Of a DNA stretch of 64,000 bases, positions 1,821-48,381 are shown one piece after another. How positions within the stretch are numbered: the stretch's first letter is position 1; each line of letters opens with the position of its first letter. Origin of the DNA: a virus; the IMG/VR virus record IMGVR_UViG_3300042469_000981; one strand, written 5' to 3'. A program made the translations under genes and the position numbers. The notes beneath the pieces are model-generated. The model saw only the letters and a list, made by a program, of their open reading frames with translations. It did no database searches and was not told the origin of the DNA.

Positions 1821-1838
1821 TGTTTTTTTAATAATTTT

Positions 1839-30830: not shown

Positions 30831-33407
30831 TTAAGTTAAATAACGTACTATTACTATACCTGAGCCACCATTTCCAGCTGTAGTAGCATTAGCACCACCA
30901 CCACCTCCTCCACCTGTATTTGAAACACCTGAAGTATTAGGGGTTAAAACTCCATTAATTAATCCAACACTATTACCTCCTCCTCCAAGTCCACCAAGAC
31001 CTGAATTAGGAATAGTTCCTGAGAAGTTATGACTACCTCCACCTCCACCTCCACCTGAGTAATAGGTAGAAAATCCAGTAATTGAATATGCTAAACCATC
31101 TCCACCGGCTGTTCCATCTAGAACACCTGAGGTATCTGTAGAGTTTTCACCAGCTTCACCAGCACCACCACCTCCACCTGCAGATCTTGAACTATTAAGA
31201 TCATCTCCTCCTTTATTACCTTGACCAGTAATACCTGCAGCACCTGCTACTCCTGAGTCACCACCAGCTCCACCACCAGATCCTCCTATACTAGGTACAT
31301 TTGGATTTTGATCAGCACCTCCTCTACCACCACCAATAGCAGTTAATCCGCCAAATACAGAATTTGACCCGTTAGTAGCATTGTTTTGATCAATAGTACC
31401 TCCACTACCACCGGCACCAATAGTTACAGTAATACCACTACCTGCGGAAACACCATAAGAAGATACATAAAGTAATCCTCCGGCACCTCCGCCTCCTCCT
31501 CCTCCACCATTAACATTAGATTCAGCTCCTCCACCTCCACCACCTCCAGCAACAACAAGTACTTCTACTTGACCTGTAAATGAAGGAGTAAAGGTTGCTG
31601 AACCTGTAAATGTATGAATAGTAAATGGTCCTGAATATGAAATTGTACCACCTGAACCTGAATTGAAATTAGTCCAAGCTTGAACTTGGGCTTGACTTAT
31701 TGAAGTATCAGGAATAGAAGCTAATGTATTTACAGCAAAATTATTACCAGGGACAGCATAAGTTTGCATATTTGTAAAATAAAGAGCATCAAAATATGTT
31801 CCTGTATATAGTAAAGATCCATTTACATACCAATATGAATTGGTATTGGTAAAATACCAAGCAGATCTATTTTTACCTTGTTTAGGAGTAAAACTCCCAG
31901 CATAAAAATATCCACCACTATTGTTTCCATCCCAATATATTTGTCCTGATCCTCCTAAATTAGCAAAATAAAAATAATCTGATCCTGCAGACGGGTTATT
32001 ATATAAAAATGTGTCGTAACGATTTCCACTTTCAAAATTATAAAAATCAAAATCATATAATATAACTCCAGGTTTAGAAGCAAATGCTTTTGTAGGACCA
32101 GGTGAATTGAAAACAACATCATTAGCAGCTCTAGTTACTGTTGCTGAAGTTGTTGGGATGTATGATGTTGCAAAATTTCCTTCTTCGCTTTGGGCTCCCC
32201 AAATATAAACATAATCCCCAACTGCGTAACCACCGGCAAAATAAGGATTAATAGATCGGTTAGCATCCATTTTAACTCCTATGCGATACCATCCATCTTT
32301 ATAAGGTTCAATTGTACCTGTTCCACTTATTATAGTTCCGTTATATAAATTAAATTCTGTACCAAAAGATGTATTTCCTCTATATAAACTTAATCTACCA
32401 ACATTTCCTGCTTTAGCGAATATAGTTGTATATCCGTCACTTACAGGAGCTGATGTTCCTATTTCTCCACTAGTAGCTGTTAATACTAGTTTAGATGCGT
32501 TCATAGTACCGTCAGGAGAGATAGCAGCACTTCCTGTTACAGTAACACTATATTTACCCCAAACAGCATTAGTAAAATCTTGACTATAAGTGTTTACATT
32601 TGTTCTTTGTGGTTCTTGTAATAATTTACCTTTACCATTTTTATAATCAATTCGAGGATAACCTAAACGGTCTGTTGTTGGTTGGTATGGTTTTACACCA
32701 CCTGTATTAAACATAGCACCCCACACAAATACACTTGTACCTGTGCCAACGTAACCGGCAGATGTAAATGTTGATTGGTTTAATAACATACATAAAAAGT
32801 ATAAGTTACCTCCAATCAATGAAGTTGCATATGTAAAAGTTCCAGTTACATAATACCAACCACCACCTACATTTGTTATTGTAGAAGTTAGAGTATCACC
32901 CCCTGTGTTTACAAAATTTTGAGTAATTGTACCATTTACTAAATCAACAACTACTTGACTTCTGTAGACACTATCATCTGTAAGACCAAAACTAAAATAT
33001 TGGTGATTATTGTATTTTACATAAAGAGAAAAAGACATTGTTTGTGGGCTTCCATACCCTGTAAATGCTCCTTGATATACTCTATGGGCGGCATTATTAC
33101 TATTATTAGCTATAGTATCTGCAGTTGTTGTTCCGTTAGGTGCTATAGTACTGTTTGCTGTTACAGATGTATCATTTAATATCCACGGACTAGATCCAAT
33201 TGCCTCACTTTGATTTATTAAATTAGCCGGTACTGTTTCAATATAACCTTGTTGGTTAACTCGAGTACCACCTCCACTATTTCCACCAACAGCACCATCA
33301 ACAGTACCATCATTAGGTAAAACAGAATATACCTTATCTTCTTGATAAGAAATTATACTACCCGCAGGATTAAAAATAAAAGAGGAATTATTGAGTATAC
33401 TCGCCAT
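30831..33407 (-). CDS. Fibre/spike protein with two beta-sandwich repeats and a C-terminal glycine-rich domain
   Basis: Two N....S..(I/F)....W...TAPxGT repeats ending VWGA; C-terminal VEVLVVAGGGGGG...GGSGIVIVRY. Confidence 0.72.
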   Translation of the reverse strand: MASILNNSSFIFNPAGSIISYQEDKVYSVLPNDGTVDGAVGGNSGGGTRVNQQGYIETVPANLINQSEAIGSSPWILNDTSVTANSTIAPNGTTTADTIANNSNNAAHRVYQGAFTGYGSPQTMSFSLYVKYNNHQYFSFGLTDDSVYRSQVVVDLVNGTITQNFVNTGGDTLTSTITNVGGGWYYVTGTFTYATSLIGGNLYFLCMLLNQSTFTSAGYVGTGTSVFVWGAMFNTGGVKPYQPTTDRLGYPRIDYKNGKGKLLQEPQRTNVNTYSQDFTNAVWGKYSVTVTGSAAISPDGTMNASKLVLTATSGEIGTSAPVSDGYTTIFAKAGNVGRLSLYRGNTSFGTEFNLYNGTIISGTGTIEPYKDGWYRIGVKMDANRSINPYFAGGYAVGDYVYIWGAQSEEGNFATSYIPTTSATVTRAANDVVFNSPGPTKAFASKPGVILYDFDFYNFESGNRYDTFLYNNPSAGSDYFYFANLGGSGQIYWDGNNSGGYFYAGSFTPKQGKNRSAWYFTNTNSYWYVNGSLLYTGTYFDALYFTNMQTYAVPGNNFAVNTLASIPDTSISQAQVQAWTNFNSGSGGTISYSGPFTIHTFTGSATFTPSFTGQVEVLVVAGGGGGGGAESNVNGGGGGGGGAGGLLYVSSYGVSAGSGITVTIGAGGSGGTIDQNNATNGSNSVFGGLTAIGGGRGGADQNPNVPSIGGSGGGAGGDSGVAGAAGITGQGNKGGDDLNSSRSAGGGGGAGEAGENSTDTSGVLDGTAGGDGLAYSITGFSTYYSGGGGGGGSHNFSGTIPNSGLGGLGGGGNSVGLINGVLTPNTSGVSNTGGGGGGGANATTAGNGGSGIVIVRYLT

Positions 33408-33441
33408 TTAGTAACAGTTATATGTTATAAATATTGTATCT

Positions 33442-34557
33442 TTATAAAGCAGTAATGAAGTAAGTTTCATATCCTCCATGACACCAACCGTAACCAAGTG
33501 GGAATTTCTCACTCATTAAATCATGAATAGAATTTTCCGGAATGTTACTACGTTCATCAAACTTTAGTTTAATGTGGATGCCTGGATTAGTTTGTTTTAG
33601 TTTATCTATAATGTTAGTTAGACTACTGAATGTTTGTTCGTTAAGGCAAACTATAACTTCGTCAAATTTCATATCTGAAGTACTATCAAAGTACAAATCA
33701 TGATCAAAGAATAATTCCTTTAGTAGCTGACGTTCATATACCTTAATATCTTCTTTTACATAAAGTATACTCTGTCTTGAAGATGCTGTATTAAAATCAC
33801 CCATAGCAAAATCTCTAGATTGATACTTGATAGGTAGGTAGTATAATGAGGTTGTTAGTTTGTCTGGATTGTTTAAGTAAGGGAACTTGCTTTCAATAAA
33901 TAATCTTTCTGCTTCAATCTCAGCATAAGTTTCACCTGATCTTCCTGGTTCTCTTGAAAATGTGTCTATTGAGTAGTTATACTCATATAAGGTTCTAGGA
34001 ATATACAACCATTTTCCTTTAGTTTCAACATATCTAACTATGTTAGTATCGTTTTGATACCACTTTAATTGACCCTCGTCAAAACTAGGTATAATATTTC
34101 TCCAAGCCCGTCCCATTGGGGTATAGTTAAAAGTAGATATTTCTTCATAATCATAGTGGCCTCCTCCTTGAATTTCTACAAATTCACCTTTTTCATTTAT
34201 ATTTTTTGAATAACAGCTTATACCCGCTACATCAGGATGTTTTAAAAATAAGTGATTGTAAACCTCTAAAATGCGAGGATAAGCATAATCATCACTATCA
34301 AACTGAATTACTATTTCTCCGGTTGTTCCAGATTGTGGATTATAAAAGCATTCTTTTTTTCTAGACTGCTGATAGTACTTTACTCTAGAATCTTTTTTAC
34401 AAATTTCCTTTAGTAATTCTTCAGCATTGTTATAGTCTGAAAAGTCATCAGTAACAATCCATTCCCAATCTTGATGGGTTTGGTCTAGAATTTGTTTGTA
34501 TAGTTTTTCAACTAAATGGCTTCTTCTATAGAATGATGTGCTTATACTAAATTTCAT
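33442..34557 (-). CDS. GT-A (family 2-like) glycosyltransferase
   Basis: FSISTSFY...WEWIVTDDFS...QFDSDDY (DxD); start at ATG 34557 overlapping the upstream stop (ATGA). Confidence 0.85.
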   Translation of the reverse strand: MKFSISTSFYRRSHLVEKLYKQILDQTHQDWEWIVTDDFSDYNNAEELLKEICKKDSRVKYYQQSRKKECFYNPQSGTTGEIVIQFDSDDYAYPRILEVYNHLFLKHPDVAGISCYSKNINEKGEFVEIQGGGHYDYEEISTFNYTPMGRAWRNIIPSFDEGQLKWYQNDTNIVRYVETKGKWLYIPRTLYEYNYSIDTFSREPGRSGETYAEIEAERLFIESKFPYLNNPDKLTTSLYYLPIKYQSRDFAMGDFNTASSRQSILYVKEDIKVYERQLLKELFFDHDLYFDSTSDMKFDEVIVCLNEQTFSSLTNIIDKLKQTNPGIHIKLKFDERSNIPENSIHDLMSEKFPLGYGWCHGGYETYFITAL

Positions 34558-35168
34558 GGTTTCCAGATTCCTATCCCACCGAAGTGTTCTTTTTGTCCAA
34601 AACAAGTTGTTTTACCTGATGATTTTATAGTAACTATGTTAGTTTTAGAACCATAAGATAGGTCCTGCCAAAATTTATATACCTGTCCACCAGCACCATC
34701 TCTAAAGATATGGTCAGGATCAATATCATGAAACACAATATACCCTCTAGGTGACAATAATTCTTGATATAATTCAAAATCACGTCTTACACCTTCATAT
34801 GAATGATCTCCATCAATAAAAATTAGATCATATTCAGGGCAGAACTCTTTAACTTTATCTCTTGTTTCTTCAGTTTGTGAATCAGCTATAAATAACTTAA
34901 AGTCTTCTCCATACATCATATAGTGAGACCAAATTGTTCTACCTTTATCCTCATAATCAACAGCTGCTTTTTTACCTGTTGATAATTGAGACATAATATG
35001 AAATGAACTTCCTTTAAATCCAATTTCTAGGATATTGTTAGCTTGAAATCCTTTAAGCCAGTAACCAAATGTAGTTATCTCCTCATAAACCTGCTGGAAT
35101 AAAGTAGGTTCGATAAGGAAATCCTTAACATGATAGTCAATTAATTCCTGTATACTTATGTCTTTCAT
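34554..35168 (-). CDS. Class I SAM methyltransferase (Methyltransf_24-like)
   Basis: ILEIGFKGS, YDLIFIDGDHSYEGV..DF, GGY-like PRGYIVFHD. Confidence 0.85.
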   Translation of the reverse strand: MKDISIQELIDYHVKDFLIEPTLFQQVYEEITTFGYWLKGFQANNILEIGFKGSSFHIMSQLSTGKKAAVDYEDKGRTIWSHYMMYGEDFKLFIADSQTEETRDKVKEFCPEYDLIFIDGDHSYEGVRRDFELYQELLSPRGYIVFHDIDPDHIFRDGAGGQVYKFWQDLSYGSKTNIVTIKSSGKTTCFGQKEHFGGIGIWKP

Positions 35169-36118
35169 TAGCTAAAAAAGAATACTGTTCCGTTTTCACT
35201 TTCAATATTACATCCATCTTCAAATTGGCATTTAAATCCTAATGAATTAAAACGTTCAACTATAGAATTTAAACGTCCTTGTGAATTGTGGTATTCTAAA
35301 AGAATTTTATCTGTTATTTCGAATATAGCATTTGATGTACTATCAATAACATTCCATTCTTCACCTTCAATATCTAATTTTAAAAGATTAATTTTATTCC
35401 AACCTAAAGTATTTACTACATTCTGCAGGGTTGTTGTTTGTACTATTTTAGTATTAGGATTATCGAAAGTAGAAAATTCACTGTGCTGAATATCTAAAGT
35501 TGAGATTAAAGGATTATCTTCCTTCCAGTATAAAGCGGTTTGTTCTTCTCGGTCAGATAGTGCTTCACCGATAATAGTTATATTAATATTATCTAAAAAA
35601 TTACTAATTAAAGCCTTGATGCTTCTATCATCACATTCTATAGCAGCTACAAGCTTGGCTCCTTTATTTAAAATGTATTGAGTAAATAAACCGACACTGG
35701 CCCCAGCGTCAATTACCTTCTCACAATTACTCAAATCAAAGTCTTTATATTTGTCATCAACAAAAAACTCTCGGTAATTAACAAATGATGGATGGTAGTA
35801 ATCGTTTATATTCTGTTTATGCTTGTATAGATTAGTGTATCTAAACCTCAAAATGATTCTGTCTAAGACTACACCTTCATCAATTAATTCTAAGGTAAAA
35901 CCTCCAAAATCCTCTCTACTAAAATCAAATCCGTGTTTAGGGGTTGGTTGGAAGAATACATAAAGACCGGGTTGTACGTCCCATATCTTCATTTTGTATA
36001 TAGTAGCATCTAAATCAATGTCTTTAGCTACTATGTAACCATTCTTAACAGGGTGATAAACACGAAGATCAATTCGCTGTTCATCAAAATTGTAATTTAT
36101 TAATTCAAAACTTTTCAT
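35168..36118 (-). CDS. FkbM-family methyltransferase
   Basis: VIDAGASVGLFT...AIECD...LLKLDIEGEE. Confidence 0.88.
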   Translation of the reverse strand: MKSFELINYNFDEQRIDLRVYHPVKNGYIVAKDIDLDATIYKMKIWDVQPGLYVFFQPTPKHGFDFSREDFGGFTLELIDEGVVLDRIILRFRYTNLYKHKQNINDYYHPSFVNYREFFVDDKYKDFDLSNCEKVIDAGASVGLFTQYILNKGAKLVAAIECDDRSIKALISNFLDNINITIIGEALSDREEQTALYWKEDNPLISTLDIQHSEFSTFDNPNTKIVQTTTLQNVVNTLGWNKINLLKLDIEGEEWNVIDSTSNAIFEITDKILLEYHNSQGRLNSIVERFNSLGFKCQFEDGCNIESENGTVFFFS

Positions 36119-36143
36119 TATTTATAAAACTTTTTATTTTCTT

Positions 36144-36890
36144 TTACCCTAGTAACGGGACTATCCCGGCGTAGAGTGGTTCTCCAGTTATGCTAAATGG
36201 AGTTGTGTCTCCTCCAAGTACAACTGCTCCTTTAACTAAGTTACCGGCACTCAAACCAAGTGTATTCTGTATTGTATAACTGTTTTCTGTGTAAGCTAAA
36301 ATATTTGCTACAATCCTAGCTTTGTCTCCAGGTGTAGCTAAGTTAAAGCTAAATGGTGGTTGTGTCCAAGAAATATTATTTATCAAACTTACCCAAGTTC
36401 CTTCTGATGCTAGTGGGTTAGATGAATTAGGTAATCCTCTTTGTGATTTCCATCCATTCTGAAATAAATCATCTTCGTCGGTGAAAGCGTACTGTACTAT
36501 GTGAGATCCAGCGGCGAATGTAGAATCATTCAACGAAGGTGTTACTATGTAGTAAGCATTACCTGCAGGTTCATTAAGTGAAGTAAAGGTTACTCCTGGT
36601 GCTGCTGTAGCAATAGAGGCAGAGTCTATAGTATAAGCCGATAATTGAACGAAGTATAATTTACCTCTAGTTGTTCCTACAGGATAGGGAGTATACATTT
36701 GAAAGTCTTTTAATGCATTATTTCCTCTACTTCCAGTAGGCCATGTAAATTTATTATTTGGAGTAGAGGGAGGTGTGATGCCTAAGTAAGCATAGTTGTA
36801 GTTACTAGAAGCCATTTGGCCATTCCAAAAAGTATCTAATGATCCTGTGTTATTAGCACCTACGCCGGTTGCCATCCAAATTCCTGCCAT
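36144..36890 (-). CDS. Hypothetical protein inside the glycosylation cluster
   Basis: 248-aa ORF with its own upstream ATATTTAT motif. Confidence 0.65.
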   Translation of the reverse strand: MAGIWMATGVGANNTGSLDTFWNGQMASSNYNYAYLGITPPSTPNNKFTWPTGSRGNNALKDFQMYTPYPVGTTRGKLYFVQLSAYTIDSASIATAAPGVTFTSLNEPAGNAYYIVTPSLNDSTFAAGSHIVQYAFTDEDDLFQNGWKSQRGLPNSSNPLASEGTWVSLINNISWTQPPFSFNLATPGDKARIVANILAYTENSYTIQNTLGLSAGNLVKGAVVLGGDTTPFSITGEPLYAGIVPLLG

Positions 36891-36893
36891 ATA

Positions 36894-38087
36894 TTAATAA
36901 ATATCCAAAAGTTTATTAACTGACATAATTACTTGATCTGGAGTAATAGTTTTAGTACATTCAAATTGGCGAGGGGTATCTTTATGGTCTGGACACCATT
37001 CCCAGTCGCCTGGATCTAACCATTTGCGGTTAAAACATCCTTTACATGTTTTAGGATCTTCAGGATAAACACGTTCACATTCCTGGAATTCAGTATATGG
37101 ATGGCTAAATCCTGAAATCATAATTGTAGGTGTGTTTAAAGACCAGGATAACCAACTTAATCCACTACCTACACCAATAAACATTTTAGCATCCCTAATA
37201 TCAACCATTCTGTCTTGTAATGGTAAATCTCCAGTTTTATTAATTACACCTGTTAAAGTACCTCCTAGTTTAGAGTCATGCCATTCATCACCTAAAGGCT
37301 CTTGAGTAAGCATTACTACTTTATAACCTTTATCATTTAAATAATCAATAACAGTTTGCCATCCTCCTTTATAATTCCAATACTTAGCATGGGCTGAAGC
37401 ATGAGGAGCAATAACAACATAATCACCTTTAATATCTGTTTTTGTTTTAGGTGAGTTTATAATAGGTTTAACTTCAGAGTATTTTAACCCTAAAATTTCA
37501 CTTGCTGTTTGTTGTAAAGGATATTTTTTAAAGTCAATTGGTATCTTATCAAATATAACTTTTTTATCATCATAAAACCAACCAAGATTATACATTGCAT
37601 AAAGGTTATCTACTTGAGAACCAGGTTTTACAAACTCAATATGTGGGTAATTTCCTTCAAACCATTCATTGTGGAATGTAGAACAAATTACATCACACAT
37701 AAATGTTTTTCTAAATTCTTCAATGTAAGGGAACCATGCTAAAGTATCACCCATAGCCCCAGAATCAATGTGTATATAAACGCGTTTATCTTTTACACAC
37801 CAATCATGATCAAATACTAAATTGTTGTTACTATAAACTTCTATACGCCAATTAACACAATATTTAATGTTGGTACGAGTCCACATATTGTTATTAATTG
37901 TACTTTCATGTAATACACGATTTGTTTTTTTATTAATAAATTTAACTTTATATTCTTGTTCTGATGGTCCTAAAACTTCTAAGAAAGCACCATTAACAAA
38001 ATTAACATTAAAAGTGTTTTGTGGTTTTTTGTTTTTAATATTTAATATTTTAGTATTACTATATTCTTTAACCAATATGTCTTTCAT
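36894..38087 (-). CDS. Aah/TibC-like (autotransporter strand-loop-strand) O-heptosyltransferase homologue
   Basis: HIDSGAMGDTLAWFPY, PLQQTASEILGL, FIGVGSGLSWLSW, ISGFS, and a C-terminal four-Cys motif CKGC...WCP.H..T.RQFEC matching the TibC iron-finger. Confidence 0.8.
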   Translation of the reverse strand: MKDILVKEYSNTKILNIKNKKPQNTFNVNFVNGAFLEVLGPSEQEYKVKFINKKTNRVLHESTINNNMWTRTNIKYCVNWRIEVYSNNNLVFDHDWCVKDKRVYIHIDSGAMGDTLAWFPYIEEFRKTFMCDVICSTFHNEWFEGNYPHIEFVKPGSQVDNLYAMYNLGWFYDDKKVIFDKIPIDFKKYPLQQTASEILGLKYSEVKPIINSPKTKTDIKGDYVVIAPHASAHAKYWNYKGGWQTVIDYLNDKGYKVVMLTQEPLGDEWHDSKLGGTLTGVINKTGDLPLQDRMVDIRDAKMFIGVGSGLSWLSWSLNTPTIMISGFSHPYTEFQECERVYPEDPKTCKGCFNRKWLDPGDWEWCPDHKDTPRQFECTKTITPDQVIMSVNKLLDIY

Positions 38088-39015
38088 ATAAATTTATTAA
38101 TTCAGCAGAACGATTTAACCAGGACAATTTTTCAGCGGTTTGTAAAGATAATTTCCTGTAGTCATTATATTCATTTATGATTGTATCTAACCCACGTAAC
38201 ATTTCTTGTAAATCACGAGGTGATCTCCATAACCCATGGAATGTAGTTTCTTCTTCAATCCATCCAAGTATAGGTAAACCACAAGCTGCTGCCTCTAATA
38301 TAGTTAAATTAGGATGACCTGCTTCTAATTCTGATGGGTGTAAAAAGATTGTATGTGAGTTATAAAGTTGTCTTAATTGTTCATTAGACGGCTCAGTTAA
38401 AATACTTAACTTAGGATAACCAAATATCCAAGGATTGTCATTAAACCAATTTTCATTATTTTTTGGACCAGCTATTGTGATAGGTAAATTAGAAGCCATA
38501 GCTACTTTAATACCTAATTCAAATCCTTTTCTATCATAAGAACCATATCCACCTAAACCATTATTTGCTAACATTAATAAACTATGATAAACAGGTGTTG
38601 TATCATTTGGTTTAAATGTATCTGTATTTACTCCATGAGAAAAATAATGCACATTAGGCAATTCAAAATAATCAACTAAATAACGAGCAGGTACTAAAGA
38701 AAAAATAGATTTTTCCATAGCCTTTCGATTTTGTTTATAAACATCTGAGTCTTTACCGTAATGGTAAGCATGGTGGTCATGATGCTGGAAGATATAAGGT
38801 ATGCCTTTGTCTGCTAATTCTAGGGCTAAGTTAGCAACATGAACCATTACTAAATCATAATCTCCTTTTTTAATTTCATTAGCCCATTTTATATCTACTT
38901 CATGACCTAATTCTTTTAAATTGCATGTAAATTCCCATACAATTTTTTCTATTGCTCCCCATGTGGGTGGAGGAATTGGTATTCCACATCCTGGATTTAC
39001 TTGGCAGATTTTCAT
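38068..39015 (-). CDS. GT-B (family 4-like) glycosyltransferase
   Basis: IPP..WGAIE, HGVNT..FKP, RKG, PSELEAGHPNLTILEAAACGLP. Confidence 0.88.
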   Translation of the reverse strand: MKICQVNPGCGIPIPPPTWGAIEKIVWEFTCNLKELGHEVDIKWANEIKKGDYDLVMVHVANLALELADKGIPYIFQHHDHHAYHYGKDSDVYKQNRKAMEKSIFSLVPARYLVDYFELPNVHYFSHGVNTDTFKPNDTTPVYHSLLMLANNGLGGYGSYDRKGFELGIKVAMASNLPITIAGPKNNENWFNDNPWIFGYPKLSILTEPSNEQLRQLYNSHTIFLHPSELEAGHPNLTILEAAACGLPILGWIEEETTFHGLWRSPRDLQEMLRGLDTIINEYNDYRKLSLQTAEKLSWLNRSAELINLYERHIG

Positions 39016-39017
39016 TT

Positions 39018-39626
39018 TTAATTATGTACAAATAAACACTTATCTATAAAATATGGAATTAACTCATGTTTCATATTTTCTACTAATATTCCATCAGCTG
39101 CTGCTTCATGTTTATCTATTGAATATTTTTTTATAACTTCACTTTTTGTAGTAAATTGACCAAAATCAATATAACTATGTTGGATTTTAGGAATAAAATG
39201 TCCATAATCTTTTTTATTATGACTATGAATATTACTATATTTTCCTAAAATCATTTCCCAATATACAAAATTTACTTCAGGATTCCTAGTAATTGCTAGA
39301 TTAATTTCTTCAAGCAAAATAGGCATAAAGTAATTATCATCATTAGTATGGATAATCCAATCACCGGTTGCTAATTGGGTACCTACTTCTCTGCTATGAT
39401 GACCCCAATGGCCGTGTCTTATTTCTGTATTTGTATATTTAAATCTAGGATCTTTAAGATAATCTTCTAATTGATTTTTATGATTATTATTAAAACCATC
39501 ATGCACTAAAATAACTTCCCAATTACTATAAGTTTGACAAACAATACTTTGAAGATTACATTTAAGCAAGTGTGTTTGTTCCCAACATGGAATAATAAAA
39601 CTAAATTTTGTTTTTTCTATTTTCAT
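39018..39626 (-). CDS. GT-A (family 2-like) glycosyltransferase
   Basis: FSFIIPCW...WEVILVHDG...GH..R..G...ATGDWIIHTNDDNY. Confidence 0.85.
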   Translation of the reverse strand: MKIEKTKFSFIIPCWEQTHLLKCNLQSIVCQTYSNWEVILVHDGFNNNHKNQLEDYLKDPRFKYTNTEIRHGHWGHHSREVGTQLATGDWIIHTNDDNYFMPILLEEINLAITRNPEVNFVYWEMILGKYSNIHSHNKKDYGHFIPKIQHSYIDFGQFTTKSEVIKKYSIDKHEAAADGILVENMKHELIPYFIDKCLFVHN

Positions 39627-39628
39627 AG

Positions 39629-41620
39629 TTAATATAAAGTTAAGACTCCGTTTTTAGGTAATTGATTTTCAATATAATATTCATCAACTATTATTTTTTT
39701 ATTTTCTATTTGAGTTTGATCATGTATATCATAAGATGAATAAACTATAATGTATGTTTTTTTAGGATCAAACATAACTTGTCTAAACCAAGCTATTTTA
39801 TGTAAAACATTTACTGTTTCTTCAAAAAGCATATTCTCATCTTCGTAAACTGTAATGTTAATATTTCTACTATCAGTTGAATTAGCGATATTTAAAAACA
39901 CGGCAAATTGGTCTGGATGTTCTTTAATAGGTAGTACTGAAAAATATTCTACTCGGGAGTAATCTTTATGGGTAAAATTATCTTTTACTAATTTAGTAAA
40001 TTCAGATTCTTCTTCCCAATATATTTTATCAGCATCTTGATTAAAAGTATGGTATGTTAAATTTTCTAATCCGTTAGATTCACTACCCCATTTTACCATT
40101 AATGAATCATATTCTTTAGATGTTTTAATAGGTAAAAAATGATCTAAATAAAATTGAGGTTTAGTAGCTAAAAAATAAGTAATAACTGTATTGCCTTCTA
40201 GTTCTTTTCTTAAACCAACATATGCTTGTTTATTATTTAATATTAAAGATACATTGTCGATATAAGAAGCATTTTCTAAAATATAATCATAATTTAAAAA
40301 GAATATTTTTTTAATACCTAAACTATTAGCTAATGAAGCTGCATTGTAATAATTAGTATACACAGATGGTCCATGATAAACATCATTGTTTTCTCCAGAT
40401 AACATCAAATCTACTCTCCAACTACTATAATCAAACCAAGTATAACTATAGAATGTATGTTTAGTTAAAAGATTATTATTATCATAGATACAATAATCAA
40501 CTATTTCTTGCAGTTCTTTAGGAATTGGTAAGTGTGATGTTAATATAATTTTTCTACCTGTTTTCTTTAAAGACTCAATACATTCTTTAGTTGTTTCAAC
40601 TATAGAGTTTAAAATTGGGTAGGTTGAAACTACTATTGCTTCTTCTTCAGTTTTAGGTAAATTAGAATAATATAAAGTAGATTCAATTAAACTTAAATTA
40701 TAACTAAAATCAGTAAAGTCTAAGTAATTTACATTATAATCATCCCAATAATTAAGATATACAGGTAGGTTATATATTAAAACAGGTATTTGATATGAAA
40801 CTGCTTCTCTAATTACTAGAGGCATTGTTTCTTTATCATTGTTTGTGCCCCTGGATGTAAATAGGAATAGATCCATTGCTTGATAAAAAGCATCTACATC
40901 TGTTCTTTCATTCCACCAAGTTAAATTATTGGGTTTGTTTTTCATTAACGGTTCCCAATAATGTCTAAAGTTGTCGGCTTGATTACCTACACAATGGAAC
41001 TCATATTGAGGTAACGCTTTAGCATATTCAAAAAACTCAGCTTGGTTTTTACGGGGAGTAAATAATCCAATATGAAGAATATGTTTTTTATTAGGATCTA
41101 ATCCTAATTTTTGTAGTGCCCCTGTTCTATCCGGTCTTTCAATATATTCAATAGGATATTCAACTAATACTTTAGGAATGTCTATATCTTTATATTGATT
41201 AATCTGCCATTGTGATACAAACATAAACTTATCCGGGAAAAATTTCTTCTGAGTTGTGTCATAAGATGAGTCATGAGATGTTTCTACAATTTTATACTTT
41301 CTGTCTTGAGTATAAATTTGCTCAGCTATCTTACTATCCATAAAAAACTCAGGTATTTCCTCTAAATGAATAATATCGGGTTGGATATTATTAATAATAT
41401 TGATTAATTGCTGTTTATTATCGTCTAATGTGTAGAACTTTTCAGGGGCAACTAACTGCGTTATCTTATTGCGAGTCACTACTAATATACCACCAGTACA
41501 ATCAACCCATTCAACTAAATAAATATCATAACTATTTTTTAATAGTTCAATTTTTTTAGCTAAATATTGAGGTAATCCTCCTGTCGATAAATGAGGCGCT
41601 ACATATAGTAGTTTCTCCAT
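39629..41620 (-). CDS. GT-B (family 4-like) glycosyltransferase fused to an additional C-terminal domain
   Basis: APHLSTGG.PQY, GLFTPRKNQ, DLFLFTSR...E.MPLVIREA. The second half (IVVSTYP...IILTSHLP...LNYDY) may be a further GT-A-like domain. Confidence 0.82.
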   Translation of the reverse strand: MEKLLYVAPHLSTGGLPQYLAKKIELLKNSYDIYLVEWVDCTGGILVVTRNKITQLVAPEKFYTLDDNKQQLINIINNIQPDIIHLEEIPEFFMDSKIAEQIYTQDRKYKIVETSHDSSYDTTQKKFFPDKFMFVSQWQINQYKDIDIPKVLVEYPIEYIERPDRTGALQKLGLDPNKKHILHIGLFTPRKNQAEFFEYAKALPQYEFHCVGNQADNFRHYWEPLMKNKPNNLTWWNERTDVDAFYQAMDLFLFTSRGTNNDKETMPLVIREAVSYQIPVLIYNLPVYLNYWDDYNVNYLDFTDFSYNLSLIESTLYYSNLPKTEEEAIVVSTYPILNSIVETTKECIESLKKTGRKIILTSHLPIPKELQEIVDYCIYDNNNLLTKHTFYSYTWFDYSSWRVDLMLSGENNDVYHGPSVYTNYYNAASLANSLGIKKIFFLNYDYILENASYIDNVSLILNNKQAYVGLRKELEGNTVITYFLATKPQFYLDHFLPIKTSKEYDSLMVKWGSESNGLENLTYHTFNQDADKIYWEEESEFTKLVKDNFTHKDYSRVEYFSVLPIKEHPDQFAVFLNIANSTDSRNINITVYEDENMLFEETVNVLHKIAWFRQVMFDPKKTYIIVYSSYDIHDQTQIENKKIIVDEYYIENQLPKNGVLTLY

Positions 41621-41638
41621 AACCTTTGTTAAATAAAA

Positions 41639-41917
41639 TTAGAATGAAGCTACTTTGGTATTTTCAACTTCAGTAGGGATAAATTCACCACTTTCAATGT
41701 TGATAGTACCAGCACCATACTTGTCAGAAAGAGTTTTACCCATTTCAGATTCTTCTTCTTTTAAATCATTAAAGAATTTAACAAGTTCAGTTTCTCTAGC
41801 TTCAAGTTGCAATTTAGCAATTCTAAGATTACCAAATTCATTTACAAGAGCAGTGTTTTTTTGTTGGATTTCTTTAAGAGCGTCAATCTCTTTTTTAGTT
41901 AATTTTTTTGTAGCCAT
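41639..41917 (-). CDS. Small coiled-coil protein, paralogue of 20271..20522
   Basis: KKLTKKEI...FGNL...LSDKYGAGTINIESGEF. Confidence 0.75.
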   Translation of the reverse strand: MATKKLTKKEIDALKEIQQKNTALVNEFGNLRIAKLQLEARETELVKFFNDLKEEESEMGKTLSDKYGAGTINIESGEFIPTEVENTKVASF

Positions 41918-41948
41918 AAATTTATTTTAATAACAGTTTATATCAATA

Positions 41949-41978
41949 AATATATGAAAAATAATTTAAATATCCAAA
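41949..41978 (-). promoter_or_regulatory. Bipartite promoter TTTGG-N19-TATATT at the head of the glycosylation cluster
   Basis: Minus strand TTTGG atatttaaattatttttca TATATT. Confidence 0.65.
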
Positions 41979-41983
41979 CTATC

Positions 41984-44900
41984 TTAGAAAACACCAGTAA
42001 TTATTCCTCCTACAACATTTATGTTTTGAGTTCCTGGAGGGTTCATTGGGATGTTTATAACTCCAGTATATCCAGGAGCTGCTCCTATAGAATATCCAGT
42101 TGAAGCATTAATTTGACCAGAAACATCTAGAGGATATCCGGGAGATGCTGTACCAATTCCTAATCTACTATTTGTAACATCAGCATATAGGAAAGATACA
42201 CTTTGTATTTGAGTTGTACTTGTAGTTCTAACTAGATAATCAGGTTGATTAGTAAACGTACCACCACTAATACCAGAAGTACCATTAAATGATAAACCTG
42301 AAGTACCAGCTGAACCGCTTGTACCTGAAGTACCGCTTACTGCAGATAAACCAGCAGCCCCTGCTATACCTGAAGTACCAGAGCTACCGGATGTGCCTGA
42401 TGTGCCTGAAGTTTGAGACGCTCCTGAAGCTCCTGCCGCTCCAGAAGTACCATTTGATCCATTCGTACCTGAAGTTCCTGAAGTGTTAGAAGATCCTGAG
42501 GCTCCTGCTGTTCCGTTTGAACCTGCTGAACCTGAAGTGCCAGAAGTATTTGATAAACCACTTGCTCCTGCTAGTCCTGAAGTACCACTTGAGCCTGAAG
42601 AACCACTTGAGCCTGAAGTACCAGAAGTGTTTGAGGATCCAGAAGGACCGGCTGTACCATTTGATCCTGTTGAACCACTAGAACCAGCAGTACCTGATGT
42701 GTTTGAAGATCCTGAAGGGCCAGCGGTTCCATTAGAACCTGTTGAACCTGAAGAACCACTAGTTCCTGATGTACTTGATACACCTGAACCACCATCTACT
42801 CCTGATGTACCTGTACTTCCAGACGAACCACTTGAGCCAGATGTTCCTGAAGTATTAGATGAACCTGAAGGGCCTGCGGTTCCATTTGAACCTGTAGATC
42901 CGCTTGAACCTGAAGTGCCAGAAGTGTTAGATGAACCTGATGGACCTGCTGTACCATTTGATCCTGTTGATCCAGAAGAACCAGATGTTCCTGATGAACT
43001 TGAAGAACCAGAAGCGCCTGCTGTACCGTTAGATCCTGATGAACCTGAAGTACCAGAAGTGGCACTTACTGCTGAAAGACCAGCAGCACCTGCTATACCA
43101 GAAGTACCTGAAGAACCGGATGTACCACTTGTTCCTGAGGTTGTTGAACTTCCAGAGGCACCTGCTGTTCCATTAGAACCAGTTGAGCCAGAAGTTCCAG
43201 AAGTATTAGAAGAGCCTGAAGCTCCAGCCGTTCCATTAGAACCAGTAGAACCACTAGTACCTGATGTGTTAGATAAACCTGAGTTCCCTGCTGTACCACT
43301 TGAGCCTGTAGAACCACTAGTTCCAGAAGTGCCGGAAGTATTGGAGGATCCAGATGGACCTGCTGTACCATTAGAACCGGTTGATCCTGAAGTACCGCTT
43401 GTACCTGAAGTAGATGATGCTCCTGAATTACCTGCTGCACCTGATGATCCATTTGAACCAGCTGAACCTGAAGTTCCAGATGTATTAGATATACCACTAG
43501 CTCCTGCTAATCCGGATGTTCCGCTTGAACCAGATGATCCACTAGAACCTGAAGTGCCAGAAGTGTTAGATGAACCTGATGGACCTGCTGTACCATTTGA
43601 TCCTGTTGATCCAGAAGAACCAGATGTTCCTGATGTATTAGAAGATCCAGAAGGACCTGCAGTTCCATTAGAACCTGTTGATCCACTTGAACCTGAAGTA
43701 CCGGAAGTAAAGGATGTACCTGAAGGGCCTGCTGTTCCATTTGAACCTGTTGACCCTGATGATCCACTAGTACCAGAAGTACTTGAAACGCCTGAACCTC
43801 CATCAACACCAGAAGTACCTGTTGAACCAGAAGATCCAGAAGAACCAGATGAGCCGCTTGTTTGTGATGCTCCACTAGCTCCTGCACTACCATTTGATCC
43901 TGTAGAACCAGAAGTACCAGAAGTGCCTGAAGAATTTGATTGCCCTGAATTACCTGCTGTACCTGAACTCCCTGTTGAACCAGATGATCCGCTTGAACCT
44001 GAAGTAAAAGATTCTCCAGATGCTCCTGCGTTTCCTGAAGTACCATTTGATCCTGAAGAACCGCTTGATCCTGAAGTACCAGAAGTGCCTGAAGAAGAAG
44101 ATGATCCAGAAGCACCAGCAGTACCATTAGAACCTGAACTTCCTGAGGTACCAGAAGTAGCACTTACTGCTGAAAGACCAGCAGCGCCTGCTATACCTGA
44201 AGTACCAGATGAACCGCTTGTTCCTGAAGTACCTGAAGTATTGCTACTACCTGATACTCCTGCACTACCATTTGATCCTGTTGATCCTGAAGTTCCTGAG
44301 GTACCTGAAGTGTTGCCTGTGCCTGAAGCACCTGCTGAACCATTTGATCCAGCTGAACCAGATGTACCTGAAGTTCCACTAGTACCTGAAGAACCACTAT
44401 TTTGTGATAAACCTGAAGTACCTGTTGATCCAGAAGAACCAGAAGTACCTGAGGTTGAACTTTGTCCTGAATTACCTGCCACTCCAGAAGAACCATTTGA
44501 TCCACTTGAACCTGATGTTCCAGAACTAGCTGATTGTCCTGATGATCCATCAACACCTGATGAACCACTTGAACCTGATGAACCACTTGATCCAGAAGTA
44601 CTAGACACTCCTGAAGAACCATTTGATCCTGATGATCCAGATGAACCACTAGATCCACTTGTACCAGAAGTAGAAGAACTTCCTGAGGCACCGGCTGAAC
44701 CATTTGATCCAGCTGAACCACTAGTACCTGATGTATTTGATATACCACTAGCTCCTGCTAATCCTGATGTACCAGAAGAGCCAGAGCTACCTGACGATCC
44801 AGAAGATCCGCTTGAACCAGATGTCCCAGATGTGTTACTTTGTCCTGAAGAACCATTTGACCCTGATGAACCACTTGTTCCTGATGTACCACTAGAACTA

Positions 44901-46939
44901 CTTTCTCCTGAAGAACCATTTGACCCTGATGAACCAGAAGTACCACTAGTACCAGAAGTTCCAGCACTTCCACTTGCCTGAGAAAGACCTGAGGTACCTG
45001 TTGATCCAGAACTACCTGAAGTTCCAGAAGTTGAAGATTGTCCACTATTACCCGCTGCTCCAGAAGAACCATTTGATCCACTAGATCCAGATGTACCTGA
45101 AGTACCGCTTGTACCAGAAGAATTAGATTGTCCACTACTACCTGCTAATCCAGAAGAACCGTTTGATCCAGAGGAACCACTAGTGCCTGAAGTTGAAGAT
45201 TGACCTGATGATCCATCTAACCCGCTTGAACCAGATGAACCGCTTGAGCCAGAAGATCCGCTTGTTCCACTAGTACCTGATGATTGAGATAGACCAGAAG
45301 TACCAGTTGATCCACTTGAACCTGAAGTACCAGAAGTACTTGATTGACCACTATTGCCTGCTACTCCAGATGAACCATTTGATCCAGAACTACCTGAAGT
45401 ACCTGAAGTTGAGGATTGACCTGATGAACCATCTGCTCCTGTTGAACCTGAAGATCCAGAAGAGCCACTGGTTCCTGAAGTTGAAGATTGTCCTGATGAG
45501 CCATTAATACCTGAAGAACCATTTGATCCACTAGATCCAGATGAGCCGCTTGAACCTGATGTTCCACTTGTTGAAGATATTCCTGAGCCTCCATCAACAC
45601 CAGAAGTACCTGAGCTGCCTGAGCTGCCTGAACTACCGCTTGTACCTGATGTACCGCTTGTTTGAGATAAACCATCAGTTCCGGCTGAACCATTTGAACC
45701 TGAAGAACCACTAGTTCCACTAGTACCAGAAGATTGTGATAGACCAGAAGTACCTGTACTACCGCTTGATCCAGAAGTACCTGATGTGCTTGATTGGCCG
45801 CTATTTCCAGCTACACCTGAAGATCCATTTGAACCTGAACTGCCTGAGGTACCAGAGGTAGATGATTGTCCTGATGAGCCATCTAATCCACTTGAACCTG
45901 AAGATCCAGATGAACCACTGGTTCCACTTGAACCTGATATTCCTGATGATCCATCTACTCCGCTTGAACCAGATGAGCCATTTGAGCCTGAAGAACCACT
46001 AGTTCCACTAGTGCCTGATGATTGAGATAAACCTGAAGTGCCTGTTGATCCACTTGATCCAGAAGTACCAGAAGTAGAAGATTGACCTGAGTTACCTGCT
46101 AAACCTGAGGAACCGCTTGAACCTGAACTACCTGATGAACCTGACGTTCCAGAAGAACCATCTTGTCCACTAGAACCAGATGAACCACTTGAGCCAGAAG
46201 ATCCTGAACTACCTGATGATCCACTTGTACCACTACTGCCATCATTACCACTTGAACCAGCAGAACCACTAGATCCAGAAGATCCACTTGTACCACTGAT
46301 TCCTGAAGATTGTGATAGACCAGAAGTACCAGTTGATCCACTTGAACCTGAAGTTCCTGAAGTAGATGATTGTCCACTATTACCTCCTGCTCCTGAAGAA
46401 CCATTTGATCCTGATGAACCAGAAGTTCCACTAGTACCTGAACTTCCTGAAGAACCACTTGAGCCGGATGTACCACTAGTTCCTCCACTTGTTCCTGAAG
46501 AACCTTCTACACCACTAGTTCCTGATGAACCTGTTGAGCCTGATGATCCACTTGTGCCTGCTGTTCCACTTGTACCTGAAGAGCCAGATATTCCTGAGGT
46601 ACCAGATGAACCTCCTGAAGTACCTGAACTTCCGCTTACACCAGAAGTACCATTTGACCCTGATAAACCACTTGAACCTGCTAATCCAGAAGAACCATTT
46701 GATCCAGATGTACCTGAAGTACCTGAGGTGCCTGATGTGCCTGCTGTTCCACTTCCGCCTCCGCCTCCTTGAACTAAAGATACAACACCATCATCGTTTA
46801 TAGTTAAAACGTAACCTTCCCAACCTTCAGTTACAATAGGTAAATTAAATTTATTAAAAGCTAATGACCTATCAAAAAAACCTCTACCTTGGTTTGGGTT
46901 GTCTAAACGATTATTACCTCTGTATCTGTTTTCGGCCAT
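41984..46939 (-). CDS. Giant Gly-Ser/Thr repeat fibre protein (1651 aa, about 1500 aa in Gly-X-Y register)
   Basis: Unique N-terminus of about 60 aa, a long GTS/GSS/GSN tract, and a C-terminal RLGIGTASP fibre module. Confidence 0.85.
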   Translation of the reverse strand: MAENRYRGNNRLDNPNQGRGFFDRSLAFNKFNLPIVTEGWEGYVLTINDDGVVSLVQGGGGGSGTAGTSGTSGTSGTSGSNGSSGLAGSSGLSGSNGTSGVSGSSGTSGGSSGTSGISGSSGTSGTAGTSGSSGSTGSSGTSGVEGSSGTSGGTSGTSGSSGSSGSSGTSGTSGSSGSNGSSGAGGNSGQSSTSGTSGSSGSTGTSGLSQSSGISGTSGSSGSSGSAGSSGNDGSSGTSGSSGSSGSSGSSGSSGSSGQDGSSGTSGSSGSSGSSGSSGLAGNSGQSSTSGTSGSSGSTGTSGLSQSSGTSGTSGSSGSNGSSGSSGVDGSSGISGSSGTSGSSGSSGSSGLDGSSGQSSTSGTSGSSGSNGSSGVAGNSGQSSTSGTSGSSGSTGTSGLSQSSGTSGTSGSSGSNGSAGTDGLSQTSGTSGTSGSSGSSGSSGTSGVDGGSGISSTSGTSGSSGSSGSSGSNGSSGINGSSGQSSTSGTSGSSGSSGSTGADGSSGQSSTSGTSGSSGSNGSSGVAGNSGQSSTSGTSGSSGSTGTSGLSQSSGTSGTSGSSGSSGSSGSSGLDGSSGQSSTSGTSGSSGSNGSSGLAGSSGQSNSSGTSGTSGTSGSSGSNGSSGAAGNSGQSSTSGTSGSSGSTGTSGLSQASGSAGTSGTSGTSGSSGSNGSSGESSSSGTSGTSGSSGSNGSSGQSNTSGTSGSSGSSGSSGSSGSSGTSGLAGASGISNTSGTSGSAGSNGSAGASGSSSTSGTSGSSGSSGSSGSNGSSGVSSTSGSSGSSGSSGSSGVDGSSGQSASSGTSGSSGSNGSSGVAGNSGQSSTSGTSGSSGSTGTSGLSQNSGSSGTSGTSGTSGSAGSNGSAGASGTGNTSGTSGTSGSTGSNGSAGVSGSSNTSGTSGTSGSSGTSGIAGAAGLSAVSATSGTSGSSGSNGTAGASGSSSSSGTSGTSGSSGSSGSNGTSGNAGASGESFTSGSSGSSGSTGSSGTAGNSGQSNSSGTSGTSGSTGSNGSAGASGASQTSGSSGSSGSSGSTGTSGVDGGSGVSSTSGTSGSSGSTGSNGTAGPSGTSFTSGTSGSSGSTGSNGTAGPSGSSNTSGTSGSSGSTGSNGTAGPSGSSNTSGTSGSSGSSGSSGTSGLAGASGISNTSGTSGSAGSNGSSGAAGNSGASSTSGTSGTSGSTGSNGTAGPSGSSNTSGTSGTSGSTGSSGTAGNSGLSNTSGTSGSTGSNGTAGASGSSNTSGTSGSTGSNGTAGASGSSTTSGTSGTSGSSGTSGIAGAAGLSAVSATSGTSGSSGSNGTAGASGSSSSSGTSGSSGSTGSNGTAGPSGSSNTSGTSGSSGSTGSNGTAGPSGSSNTSGTSGSSGSSGSTGTSGVDGGSGVSSTSGTSGSSGSTGSNGTAGPSGSSNTSGTAGSSGSTGSNGTAGPSGSSNTSGTSGSSGSSGSSGTSGLAGASGLSNTSGTSGSAGSNGTAGASGSSNTSGTSGTNGSNGTSGAAGASGASQTSGTSGTSGSSGTSGIAGAAGLSAVSGTSGTSGSAGTSGLSFNGTSGISGGTFTNQPDYLVRTTSTTQIQSVSFLYADVTNSRLGIGTASPGYPLDVSGQINASTGYSIGAAPGYTGVINIPMNPPGTQNINVVGGIITGVF
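42906..43635. repeat. Exact 91-bp direct repeat (42906-42996 and 43545-43635) inside the giant Gly-Ser gene
   Basis: Identical gaacctgaagtgccagaagtg...ccagatgttcctgatg copies 639 nt (213 codons) apart. Confidence 0.85.
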
Positions 46940-47860: not shown

Positions 47861-48381
47861 TATAATCTTGATAATTCAATGTTAACTTTATCAGACGGAG
47901 TGTAGTGGGCGTTACATATAACAGAAACACTATAACCAAATTCGTTTAAGTCTGTTTCATATGGATTATTTCCATTACCATCTGTATAAGGATATTCAGG
48001 GTCTTTACCTACAAAGAATTGAGCTGTACTAACATTATCTATTTCCCAATATCCATTTTGGAACATAATAATATCTCCTATGTCTGGATAAACATTAGCG
48101 TCAACTAAATCATCTCGTAAAAATTTATAAGTAACATTCCATTTAAAATCAGCTCCAAAATCACTTACAGGATATTCAAACTGACTTGTAGCGATTAAAG
48201 CATATAATAAAACAGGGTCAGCGAAATTTCTTCCAGTAGATGCTTCACCATACATGTTTACTTTAGTAGTAGTACTATTGTATTTATAGAATACACACTG
48301 TTGTGAAATAATGTTCTGCATCAACTCTCGGTTGATGTATCTAAACATTGAAATATCTCTAGCCTGTCCAAATAATGCCAT
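47860..48381 (-). CDS. Head closure / neck protein (gp14-like)
   Basis: NMYGEA...DANVYPDIGDII......YWEID pattern; position after the gp13-like gene. Confidence 0.7.
   Translation of the reverse strand: MALFGQARDISMFRYINRELMQNIISQQCVFYKYNSTTTKVNMYGEASTGRNFADPVLLYALIATSQFEYPVSDFGADFKWNVTYKFLRDDLVDANVYPDIGDIIMFQNGYWEIDNVSTAQFFVGKDPEYPYTDGNGNNPYETDLNEFGYSVSVICNAHYTPSDKVNIELSRL

Follow-up and report, generated by a model that had tools for sequence, protein, structure and literature searches.

TibC-like glycosyltransferases linked to serine-rich collagen-like fibres suggest a virion O-glycosylation system in aquatic phages

Within 64,000 nucleotides of the IMG/VR virus record IMGVR_UViG_3300042469_000981 (hereafter the window), the gene of a giant, proline-poor collagen-like fibre is followed by a block of genes for glycosyltransferases (GTs), methyltransferases and an orphan protein (33442-46939). 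The window is part of a 135.8-kb record whose completeness is estimated at 83%; all genes lie on the minus strand and the source is a myovirus of lake water. We propose, with moderate confidence, that the block encodes a cytoplasmic O-glycosylation system by which the phage modifies serines in its own fibres, which are made of Gly-Ser-Ser and Gly-Thr-Ser (GSS/GTS) triplets. The central enzyme is a homologue of the protein O-heptosyltransferases TibC and Aah. A wider reading, whose chances we consider evenly balanced, is that a distinct TibC/Aah branch, together with GT4 partners and methyltransferases, turns Gly-Ser/Thr-Ser tracts into dense O-glycosylated, mucin-like filaments in aquatic phages and some bacteria. 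The fibre, the enzymes and a second repeat protein are located as follows:

41984-46939, minus strand: proline-poor collagen-like fibre, 1651 amino acids (Pfam Collagen, E=2e-151; PHROG tail fibre and collagen-like minor tail families)
39629-41620, minus strand: GT4a (GT1/GT4), 663 amino acids (Pfam; AlphaFold 2 (AF2) model of residues 335-663)
39018-39626, minus strand: GT2a, GT-A glycosyltransferase, 202 amino acids (Pfam PF00535, E=5e-14)
38068-39015, minus strand: GT4b (GT1/GT4), GT-B glycosyltransferase, 315 amino acids (Pfam)
36894-38087, minus strand: GT9, TibC/Aah-type protein O-heptosyltransferase homologue, 397 amino acids (TIGR04414, PDB 4rap)
36144-36890, minus strand: orphan alpha/beta protein, 248 amino acids (no family in Pfam, NCBIfam or PHROG)
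35168-36118, minus strand: FkbM-family methyltransferase, 316 amino acids (PF05050; TIGR01444, 70 bits, cut-off 37.7)
34554-35168, minus strand: class I S-adenosylmethionine methyltransferase (Methyltransf_24), 204 amino acids (Pfam; weak likeness to CmcI and rhamnosyl O-methyltransferases)
33442-34557, minus strand: GT2b, GT-A glycosyltransferase (PF00535, E=9e-13, domain from residue 20 of an open reading frame (ORF) with a TTG start)
57138-60029, minus strand: second GSS/GTS collagen-like protein, 963 amino acids (Pfam Collagen, E=3e-88; translation)

The assignment of GT9 is specific. Against the NCBIfam equivalog TIGR04414 (hepto_Aah_TibC) it scores 319.8 bits for a cut-off of 200, whereas models of lipopolysaccharide (LPS) heptosyltransferases (RfaC/RfaF/RfaQ) give 20-40 bits, below their cut-offs of 170-467. 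Its alignment with TibC (PDB 4rap; E=9e-57) covers residues 22-393 against 21-386 at about 40% identity. The phage enzyme retains Asp110, the catalytic base, and the residues that contact the phosphate (Lys230), adenine (Arg286) and heptose (Trp305), as well as Phe368 (TibC numbering, compared with PMC4358343). Residues D114, K235 and W312 of the phage enzyme are invariant in an alignment of 13 diverse phage sequences. The same holds for four cysteines that align with Cys339/342/358/370 of the TibC iron finger and may bind iron. Because the ADP-heptose contacts are kept, the donor is probably ADP-heptose from the host. Among 50,697 deposited phage records, tblastn found TibC matches in four; PHROGs v4 contains no family matching GT9, and a nucleotide search with the whole cluster against deposited phages returned no match.

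The presumed acceptor consists of 37.4% Ser, 28.7% Gly, 12.5% Thr and 1% Pro, and is nearly devoid of charge (K+R+D+E make up 32 of 1651 residues). A 57-residue N-terminal head precedes about 1500 residues of G-S/T-S triplets and a C-terminal globular end of about 90 residues. Counting runs of three or more, the fibre has 430 G-X-Y triplets in 56 runs, and the repeat is mostly broken by whole non-Gly triplets (e.g. NTS, STS) that preserve the register. Gly thus occupies every third position over long tracts, as in collagen, while the imino acids or charged pairs that stabilise X and Y positions are scarce. Ser fills the Y position in 72% of the fibre's triplets, in 82% of those of the 963-residue protein, and in 69-82% across the four GSS/GTS proteins examined. 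As TibC and AAH act on Ser but leave Thr unmodified (PMC4358343), these Ser-dominated Y positions count in favour of the fibre as acceptor. The 963-residue protein, in which two repeat blocks flank a globular insert and a further globular domain forms the C-terminus, is the only other G/S/T-repeat ORF in the whole 135.8-kb record and a candidate second sugar acceptor. The repeat part of the fibre gene (42063-46832) recruits thousands of contigs with at least 85% likeness from lake metagenomes and one marine metatranscriptome, which indicates that GSS/GTS-coding repeats are very abundant in aquatic communities.

TibC homologues and GSS/GTS genes keep company well beyond this virus. In a reverse test, 77 viral records were chosen solely by a GTS/GSS coding pattern: TIGR04414 was found above cut-off in 21 of them, and in six of the nine that are at least 59% complete. 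In 10 of 16 TibC regions from the pattern-picked records, at most 5.5 kb separate the TibC gene from a giant G/S/T ORF; over all data, 12 of 18 clusters sharing less than 60% identity have one within 6 kb. This ORF can be upstream on the same strand, downstream on the same strand, or on the opposite strand, and linkage in several orientations is not predicted by inherited synteny alone. Among distant phages retrieved solely by their TibC match, Microcystis phage Mel-JY01 (TibC 43% identity) encodes a 1226-residue protein that joins a GT4 domain to a C-terminal TibC domain, with an 805-residue GTS/GSS protein two genes ahead of it, and in the huge phage LR756501 (42% identity) a GTS/GSS protein is encoded two genes from TibC. 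In the deposited Mel-JY01 record (PP395634.1) the 805-residue frame, at 635-3052 on the plus strand, faces a hypothetical coding sequence annotated on the opposite strand (739-2298), and the GTS/GSS gene is probably mis-annotated there. The 735-kb LR756501.1 also holds 1401 one-strand matches to the GSS/GTS pattern from about 103.5-105 kb onwards, and so encodes very large GTS/GSS arrays at a distance from its TibC gene as well as the smaller protein close to it.

Fusions tie the partner enzymes to TibC as well. Over its full length, GT4b is homologous (42-50% identity) to the N-terminal domain found in the GT4-TibC fusions of four other phages, and five others have the GT-B domain of GT4a fused ahead of TibC. 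In other phages, single polypeptides also join TibC to domains of FkbM or other methyltransferases, and an FkbM gene or domain stands beside TibC in records L012 and G041.

The same partners are conserved in 80 related viral loci (63-90% identity), which have a syntenic core of fibre, GT4a, GT4b and TibC genes. A giant G/S/T ORF is found within 2.5 kb of this core in 33 of the 44 loci with upstream sequence, and farther upstream in several others. A TibC of 95% identity is carried by a contig of 307 kb. The first-pass annotation of this DNA had suggested looking across related genomes for GT clusters that co-occur with GTS/GSS-repeat genes and adjoin them; the 33 of 44 loci and 12 of 18 TibC clusters just described are in keeping with such a pairing. 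It had also treated the whole eight-gene cluster as the partner of the fibre. This is right for GT4a, GT4b and TibC, which travel with the fibre, but the other five genes turn out to be accessory. In the nine relatives whose downstream gene order was read, the sheath gene comes almost immediately after TibC; some 16.5 kb of the present genome (20216-36893) are therefore lineage-specific. Besides four accessory enzymes, this segment encodes Gly-rich and LamG/concanavalin-like fibres, and it looks as if the region for fibres and their modification had expanded. Relatives of TibC, GT4b and GT4a are covered, at 85-90% likeness, by contigs from a marine metatranscriptome; as an RNA library may include DNA, and given this degree of likeness, we do not take them as evidence of expression. 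Two TibC relatives (L226 and L227; 58-60% identity) with giant G/S/T ORFs upstream come from contigs of 33-34% GC binned in Flavobacteriales metagenome-assembled genomes (MAGs). These contigs are short and probably phage, and give only a weak lead to a host group.

Of the conserved partners, GT4a is the most composite: an N-terminal GT-B domain (GT1/GT4) is followed by a GT-A-fold domain (residues ~335-555) and a beta-sandwich (~558-645). Residues 335-663 (window 39629-40618) have no Pfam match, but were modelled with high confidence (AF2 predicted local distance difference test (pLDDT) 94.8), and many GT-A nucleotide-sugar transferases match the second domain at Z 10-11.8; a capsid glycosyltransferase fold of PBCV-1 is one among other matches (Z 10.2). 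An invariant N-x-D-Y motif in the GT-A part may replace DxD. With this second transferase-type domain, the glycosyltransferase-type domains of the block number at least six, next to two methyltransferases, and such an expansion of a basic three-enzyme kit would imply a longer, capped glycan. The orphan has 47 homologues, all unnamed and from metagenomes. Its AF2 model is confident (pLDDT 83), and a fold search found no PDB match (Foldseek best E 0.29; VIA best Z 4.7) and only unnamed clusters in the ESM Atlas: by this model it could represent a novel, small alpha/beta fold.

GT families such as these are more often seen in another role. GT2, GT4 and GT9 are the usual families of LPS and exopolysaccharide synthesis, and the enzymes could remodel the host cell surface, altering the LPS O-chain, core or capsule, for example against superinfection. 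Clusters of this kind in aquatic myophages have been read in this way (Zaragoza-Solas et al. 2020, PMC7029224; PMC12801897). The names of the top NCBIfam matches to the GT2s and GT4a, none of which comes near its cut-off, point in the same direction (WcaA, PglI, TuaG, lipid-anchor glycosyltransferases), and variation of the five accessory genes among relatives is common for surface-glycan genes. We nevertheless regard surface remodelling as rather improbable. GT9 belongs to the Aah/TibC equivalog, at 320 bits against 20-40 for the RfaC/F/Q models. The block encodes no flippase, polymerase, lipid-carrier priming enzyme or membrane protein, and none of its enzymes has a hydrophobic segment resembling a membrane span; together with the location in a late structural operon, this counts for modification of fibres in the cytoplasm. 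Finally, TibC and its GT4 partners follow GSS/GTS genes through rearrangements, fusions and bacterial genomes, none of which an LPS role predicts.

The bacterial genomes are informative on the nature of the acceptor. Among 42 TibC relatives from bacterial genomes, a GTS/GSS ORF lies within 10 kb in 24 cases and within 300 nt in 14. The neighbours in Methylomicrobium oryzae RS1 and in a gammaproteobacterial MAG are secreted proteins, each combining a signal peptide, a (GTS)n tract and a globular domain. Small secreted proteins of this build adjoin TibC homologues in methanotroph and other proteobacterial genomes (L241, 11214-11924; L254, 8752-9759). It is possible that the secreted (GTS)n proteins of free-living bacteria form an unrecognised class of heptosylated proteins. 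We also considered a clean split between an 'autotransporter branch' and a 'GTS branch' of the family. Such a split is not demonstrable: a Caballeronia homologue has no adjacent autotransporter, its neighbours being an S41 peptidase, ThiF and PtsI.

A protein acceptor other than the GSS/GTS fibre would make the adjacency of the two incidental. The 2251-residue fibre-like protein encoded close by, with its many PHROG tail-fibre repeats, might be the substrate, as might capsid or tail-tube subunits or a host protein. The established substrates of TibC and Aah are beta-helical passenger domains and not collagen-like (PMC4358343). Mycobacteriophage glycans have been placed on the C-termini of capsid and tail-tube proteins, according to a study cited in PMC12619734, and certain TibC-bearing regions lack a GSS/GTS ORF within 10 kb. 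Against these points, no feature other than the GTS/GSS tract recurs beside TibC both in unrelated phages and in bacteria. The small secreted neighbours in bacteria have no other unusual feature, and the Y position of the triplets is dominated by Ser. A different acceptor is unlikely in our estimate.

DNA is the third potential target, since phage glycosyltransferases often act on it (PMC12619734): the GTs and methyltransferases would then decorate modified phage bases and evade restriction. The Methyltransf_24 protein does weakly match a PHROG named DNA methyltransferase. On the other side, the block sits in the late structural operon, away from the replication genes, and TibC-family enzymes are protein-specific (PMC4358343). 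The thymidylate-synthase-family gene of the record is an ordinary ThyA (NF002496, 339.7 bits, cut-off 325), and the record showed no sign of hydroxymethyl-pyrimidine DNA chemistry. A Tet/JBP search of the record also found none, but as its controls were equally silent it carries no weight. DNA modification is an unlikely function for this block, and hypermodification to evade restriction seems to us highly improbable.

Modification of the phage's own fibres, which remains our preferred explanation, had been put forward in the first-pass annotation as O-glycosylation of Ser/Thr-rich fibres, and not of DNA or LPS. Family membership, catalytic residues, recurrent linkage, fusions and the pairing in bacteria all argue for it, and comparative genomics supports this core idea well; the first-pass interpretation as a whole is partly supported. 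Several observations weigh against it. The sugar on the GSS/GTS fibres is predicted from comparative genomics and not from experiment. Five genes of the block (GT2a, the orphan, FkbM, Methyltransf_24 and GT2b) are present in none of the 80 relatives, and are tied to the fibre by adjacency alone. Much of the observed synteny comes from one lineage and is thus non-independent, and the sixteen TibC regions of the reverse test were ascertained via the repeat pattern, which guarantees presence of a repeat in the record but not its proximity. The association also has gaps in both directions: the huge phage LR756504 has a TibC (38% identity) and no GSS/GTS repeat pattern, while the fairly complete phages G003, G048 and G064 have GSS/GTS repeats and no TibC. 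In the enzyme itself, Thr226 of TibC is replaced by Ser, and Pro300, a site of donor stereoselectivity, by Gly, which makes the donor sugar uncertain. No match to the heptose-pathway domains SIS_2, PfkB and Epimerase was found in the 83%-complete record, and CTP_transf_like gave a weak hit only, so any such donor must be supplied by the host. The thumb tip of TibC, Phe265/Val266, corresponds to Asp/Glu in GT9, and the alignment around it shows a gap of 3 residues and an insertion of 5. In TibC, the substitutions F265D or V266D abolish both the dodecamer and activity (PMC4358343), and the quaternary structure and mechanism of GT9 may therefore differ from those of TibC. By sequence and active site GT9 is a family member, yet it probably does not form a TibC-like ring.

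Within these bounds, the following scheme can be drawn. Late in infection, the soluble TibC-like GT9 would use a nucleotide sugar produced by the host, most probably ADP-heptose, to attach a sugar to Ser hydroxyls of the Gly-Ser/Thr-Ser triplets. The acceptors would be the 1651-residue fibre and probably also the 963-residue GSS/GTS protein, mainly at Y-position serines. This primer would be extended by the conserved partners GT4b and two-domain GT4a; in the present genome, the two extra GT2s and the two methyltransferases would lengthen and cap the glycan. That the glycan is methylated is suggested by the methyltransferase-TibC fusions of other phages. The product would be a dense, mucin- or bottlebrush-like glycosylated fibre, about 0.4 um long if triple-helical, encoded at the position of a myovirus neck or whisker fibre. 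The acceptor, the donor sugar, the order of steps, and a role in helix stability, solubility, shielding or adhesion are proposals that we infer from these comparisons.

The gene block is real and no assembly artefact, as identical contigs over 33000-42721 are present in another lake metagenome; the stretch was found again and again in lake-water metagenomes from 2016 to 2025. The block sits in a late structural operon between neck and tail-sheath genes. Genes for TerL, the portal and the major capsid protein lie upstream, beyond the window. After the head genes come, in order, the 963-residue GSS/GTS protein, the 2251-residue fibre-like protein, a head-tail adaptor-like gene, the 1651-residue fibre and the enzyme block. 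On the 3' side of the block are Gly-rich/LamG fibre genes, the sheath, the tube and the baseplate hub. The remaining features referred to here are:

48381-49571: head-tail adaptor-like gene, upstream of the fibre gene
41918-41983: AT-rich spacer of 66 nt between the fibre gene and the small gene (from sequence)
41639-41917, minus strand: charged, helix-prone protein of 92 amino acids (from sequence)
18458-20215: tail sheath gene, downstream of the enzyme block

On most points of gene structure, the first-pass annotation proved accurate. The ORFs, with all eight enzyme-cluster genes in place, were recovered at its coordinates, on the minus strand, and Pfam and NCBIfam confirmed its families (GT4, GT2, GT4, Aah/TibC-like, orphan, FkbM, methyltransferase, GT2). 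The overlaps it had noticed are real: TAATG at 35170-35166, ATGA at 34557-34554, and 20 nt between the GT4b and TibC genes at 38068-38087. Its placement of the cluster inside the structural region, between neck and fibre genes, agrees with the adaptor-like gene upstream and the fibre, sheath and tube genes downstream. The ORF listed for GT2b reaches 34605 with a TTG start; the ATGA overlap makes the ATG at 34557 the more probable start. A promoter announced after the fibre gene found no backing: the spacer has only 9/12 sigma-70-like matches, and a scan of the region gave 58 promoter-like sites, no excess over the 58.7 expected from shuffled sequence. The small gene had been called a coiled coil, a character read off the sequence alone; its 92-residue product has no match in Pfam, NCBIfam or PHROG. 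In relatives this gene occurs either between the fibre and GT4a, as here, or after the TibC gene. Also beyond the window, a gene for a Zeta-toxin/AAA_33 kinase-like protein of 274 amino acids (record 134757-135581) is followed by a 129-amino-acid ORF and then by an 832-amino-acid ORF (record 131873-134371). The last has a weak cytidylyltransferase-like match at its N-terminus (CTP_transf_like, partial, 16.6 bits), with no Pfam match at E<=0.001.

Both protein O-heptosylation by bacterial autotransporter heptosyltransferases (BAHTs) and the glycosylation of virions in mycobacteriophages and giant viruses are already known. The searchable literature yielded no TibC-type system devoted to collagen-like Ser repeats in phages. 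If our reading is true, bacterial protein O-heptosylation extends beyond a few virulence autotransporters to Gly-Ser/Thr-Ser repeats, a new class of BAHT acceptors. Aquatic tailed phages would then own a self-contained and widespread virion glycosylation, comparable to those of giant viruses and mycobacteriophages. The proposal lends itself to direct tests both in E. coli and with Microcystis phage Mel-JY01, which is a cultured relative.

The closest known systems are the pairs TibC-TibA and Aah-AIDA-I of E. coli (BAHT family; PDB 4rap/4rb4). They share with the phage system a soluble cytoplasmic enzyme with an N-terminal barrel and a GT-B catalytic domain, whose gene adjoins that of a highly repetitive, Ser-rich protein. 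The presumed acceptor differs, being a viral Gly-X-Y fibre here, in a 135.8-kb record with no match to the Autotransporter domain (PF03797), and a beta-helical autotransporter passenger there, and so do the thumb tip (Asp/Glu) and the Pro300 site (Gly) of the enzyme. Moreover, one or two GT4 partners always accompany the phage enzyme, and other phages have them fused to it; their constancy suggests an oligosaccharide over single heptoses. On the acceptor side, the nearest likeness is to BclA of Bacillus and Clostridioides spores and to the cuticle collagen of Riftia, hydroxyproline-free Gly-X-Y proteins in which a hydroxy-amino acid at the Y position is O-glycosylated. The BclA glycan carries a methylated terminal sugar, and its glycosylation genes lie near the structural gene. 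These are cellular filaments and not viral ones, modified by other types of glycosyltransferases, and rich in Pro with Thr as acceptor (GPT), whereas the phage fibre has 1% Pro and is dominated by Ser. Glycosylation could explain what keeps a collagen-like helix stable or soluble when it lacks proline and charge.

Among viruses, giant viruses provide one parallel: the chlorovirus A064R protein (GT-GT-methyltransferase) and the Mimivirus fibrils exemplify virus-encoded enzymes that make methylated virion glycans independently of the host (PMC9614988). Multi-domain proteins joining glycosyltransferases and a methyltransferase are common to both settings, but those viruses are eukaryotic; they use enzymes of other families, none of TibC type, and their glycans are N-linked or attached through other linkages. 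Mycobacteriophages are a second parallel, in which phage glycosyltransferases glycosylate virion proteins in the host cell (Freeman et al. 2023, as cited in PMC12619734 and PMC12801897). As far as these citing papers describe that system, its glycosyltransferase genes also adjoin structural genes, and its glycans are demonstrated, whereas those of the collagen-like fibres are predicted. Its enzymes belong to other families and its targets are the C-termini of capsid and tail-tube proteins, in contrast to the giant collagen-like fibres and TibC-type primer of this Gram-negative-type aquatic lineage. The third parallel is the 'host recognition cluster' of pelagimyophages and cyanomyophages, where glycosyltransferases lie among fibre genes between neck and baseplate or tail, with collagen-repeat proteins nearby (PMC7029224). 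That study reads the cluster as host O-chain modification, and mentions neither a TibC-type enzyme nor a link to the collagen repeats. If the fibres are indeed what these enzymes modify, many 'LPS-modifying auxiliary genes' in the structural regions of aquatic myophages would instead be enzymes of virion maturation.

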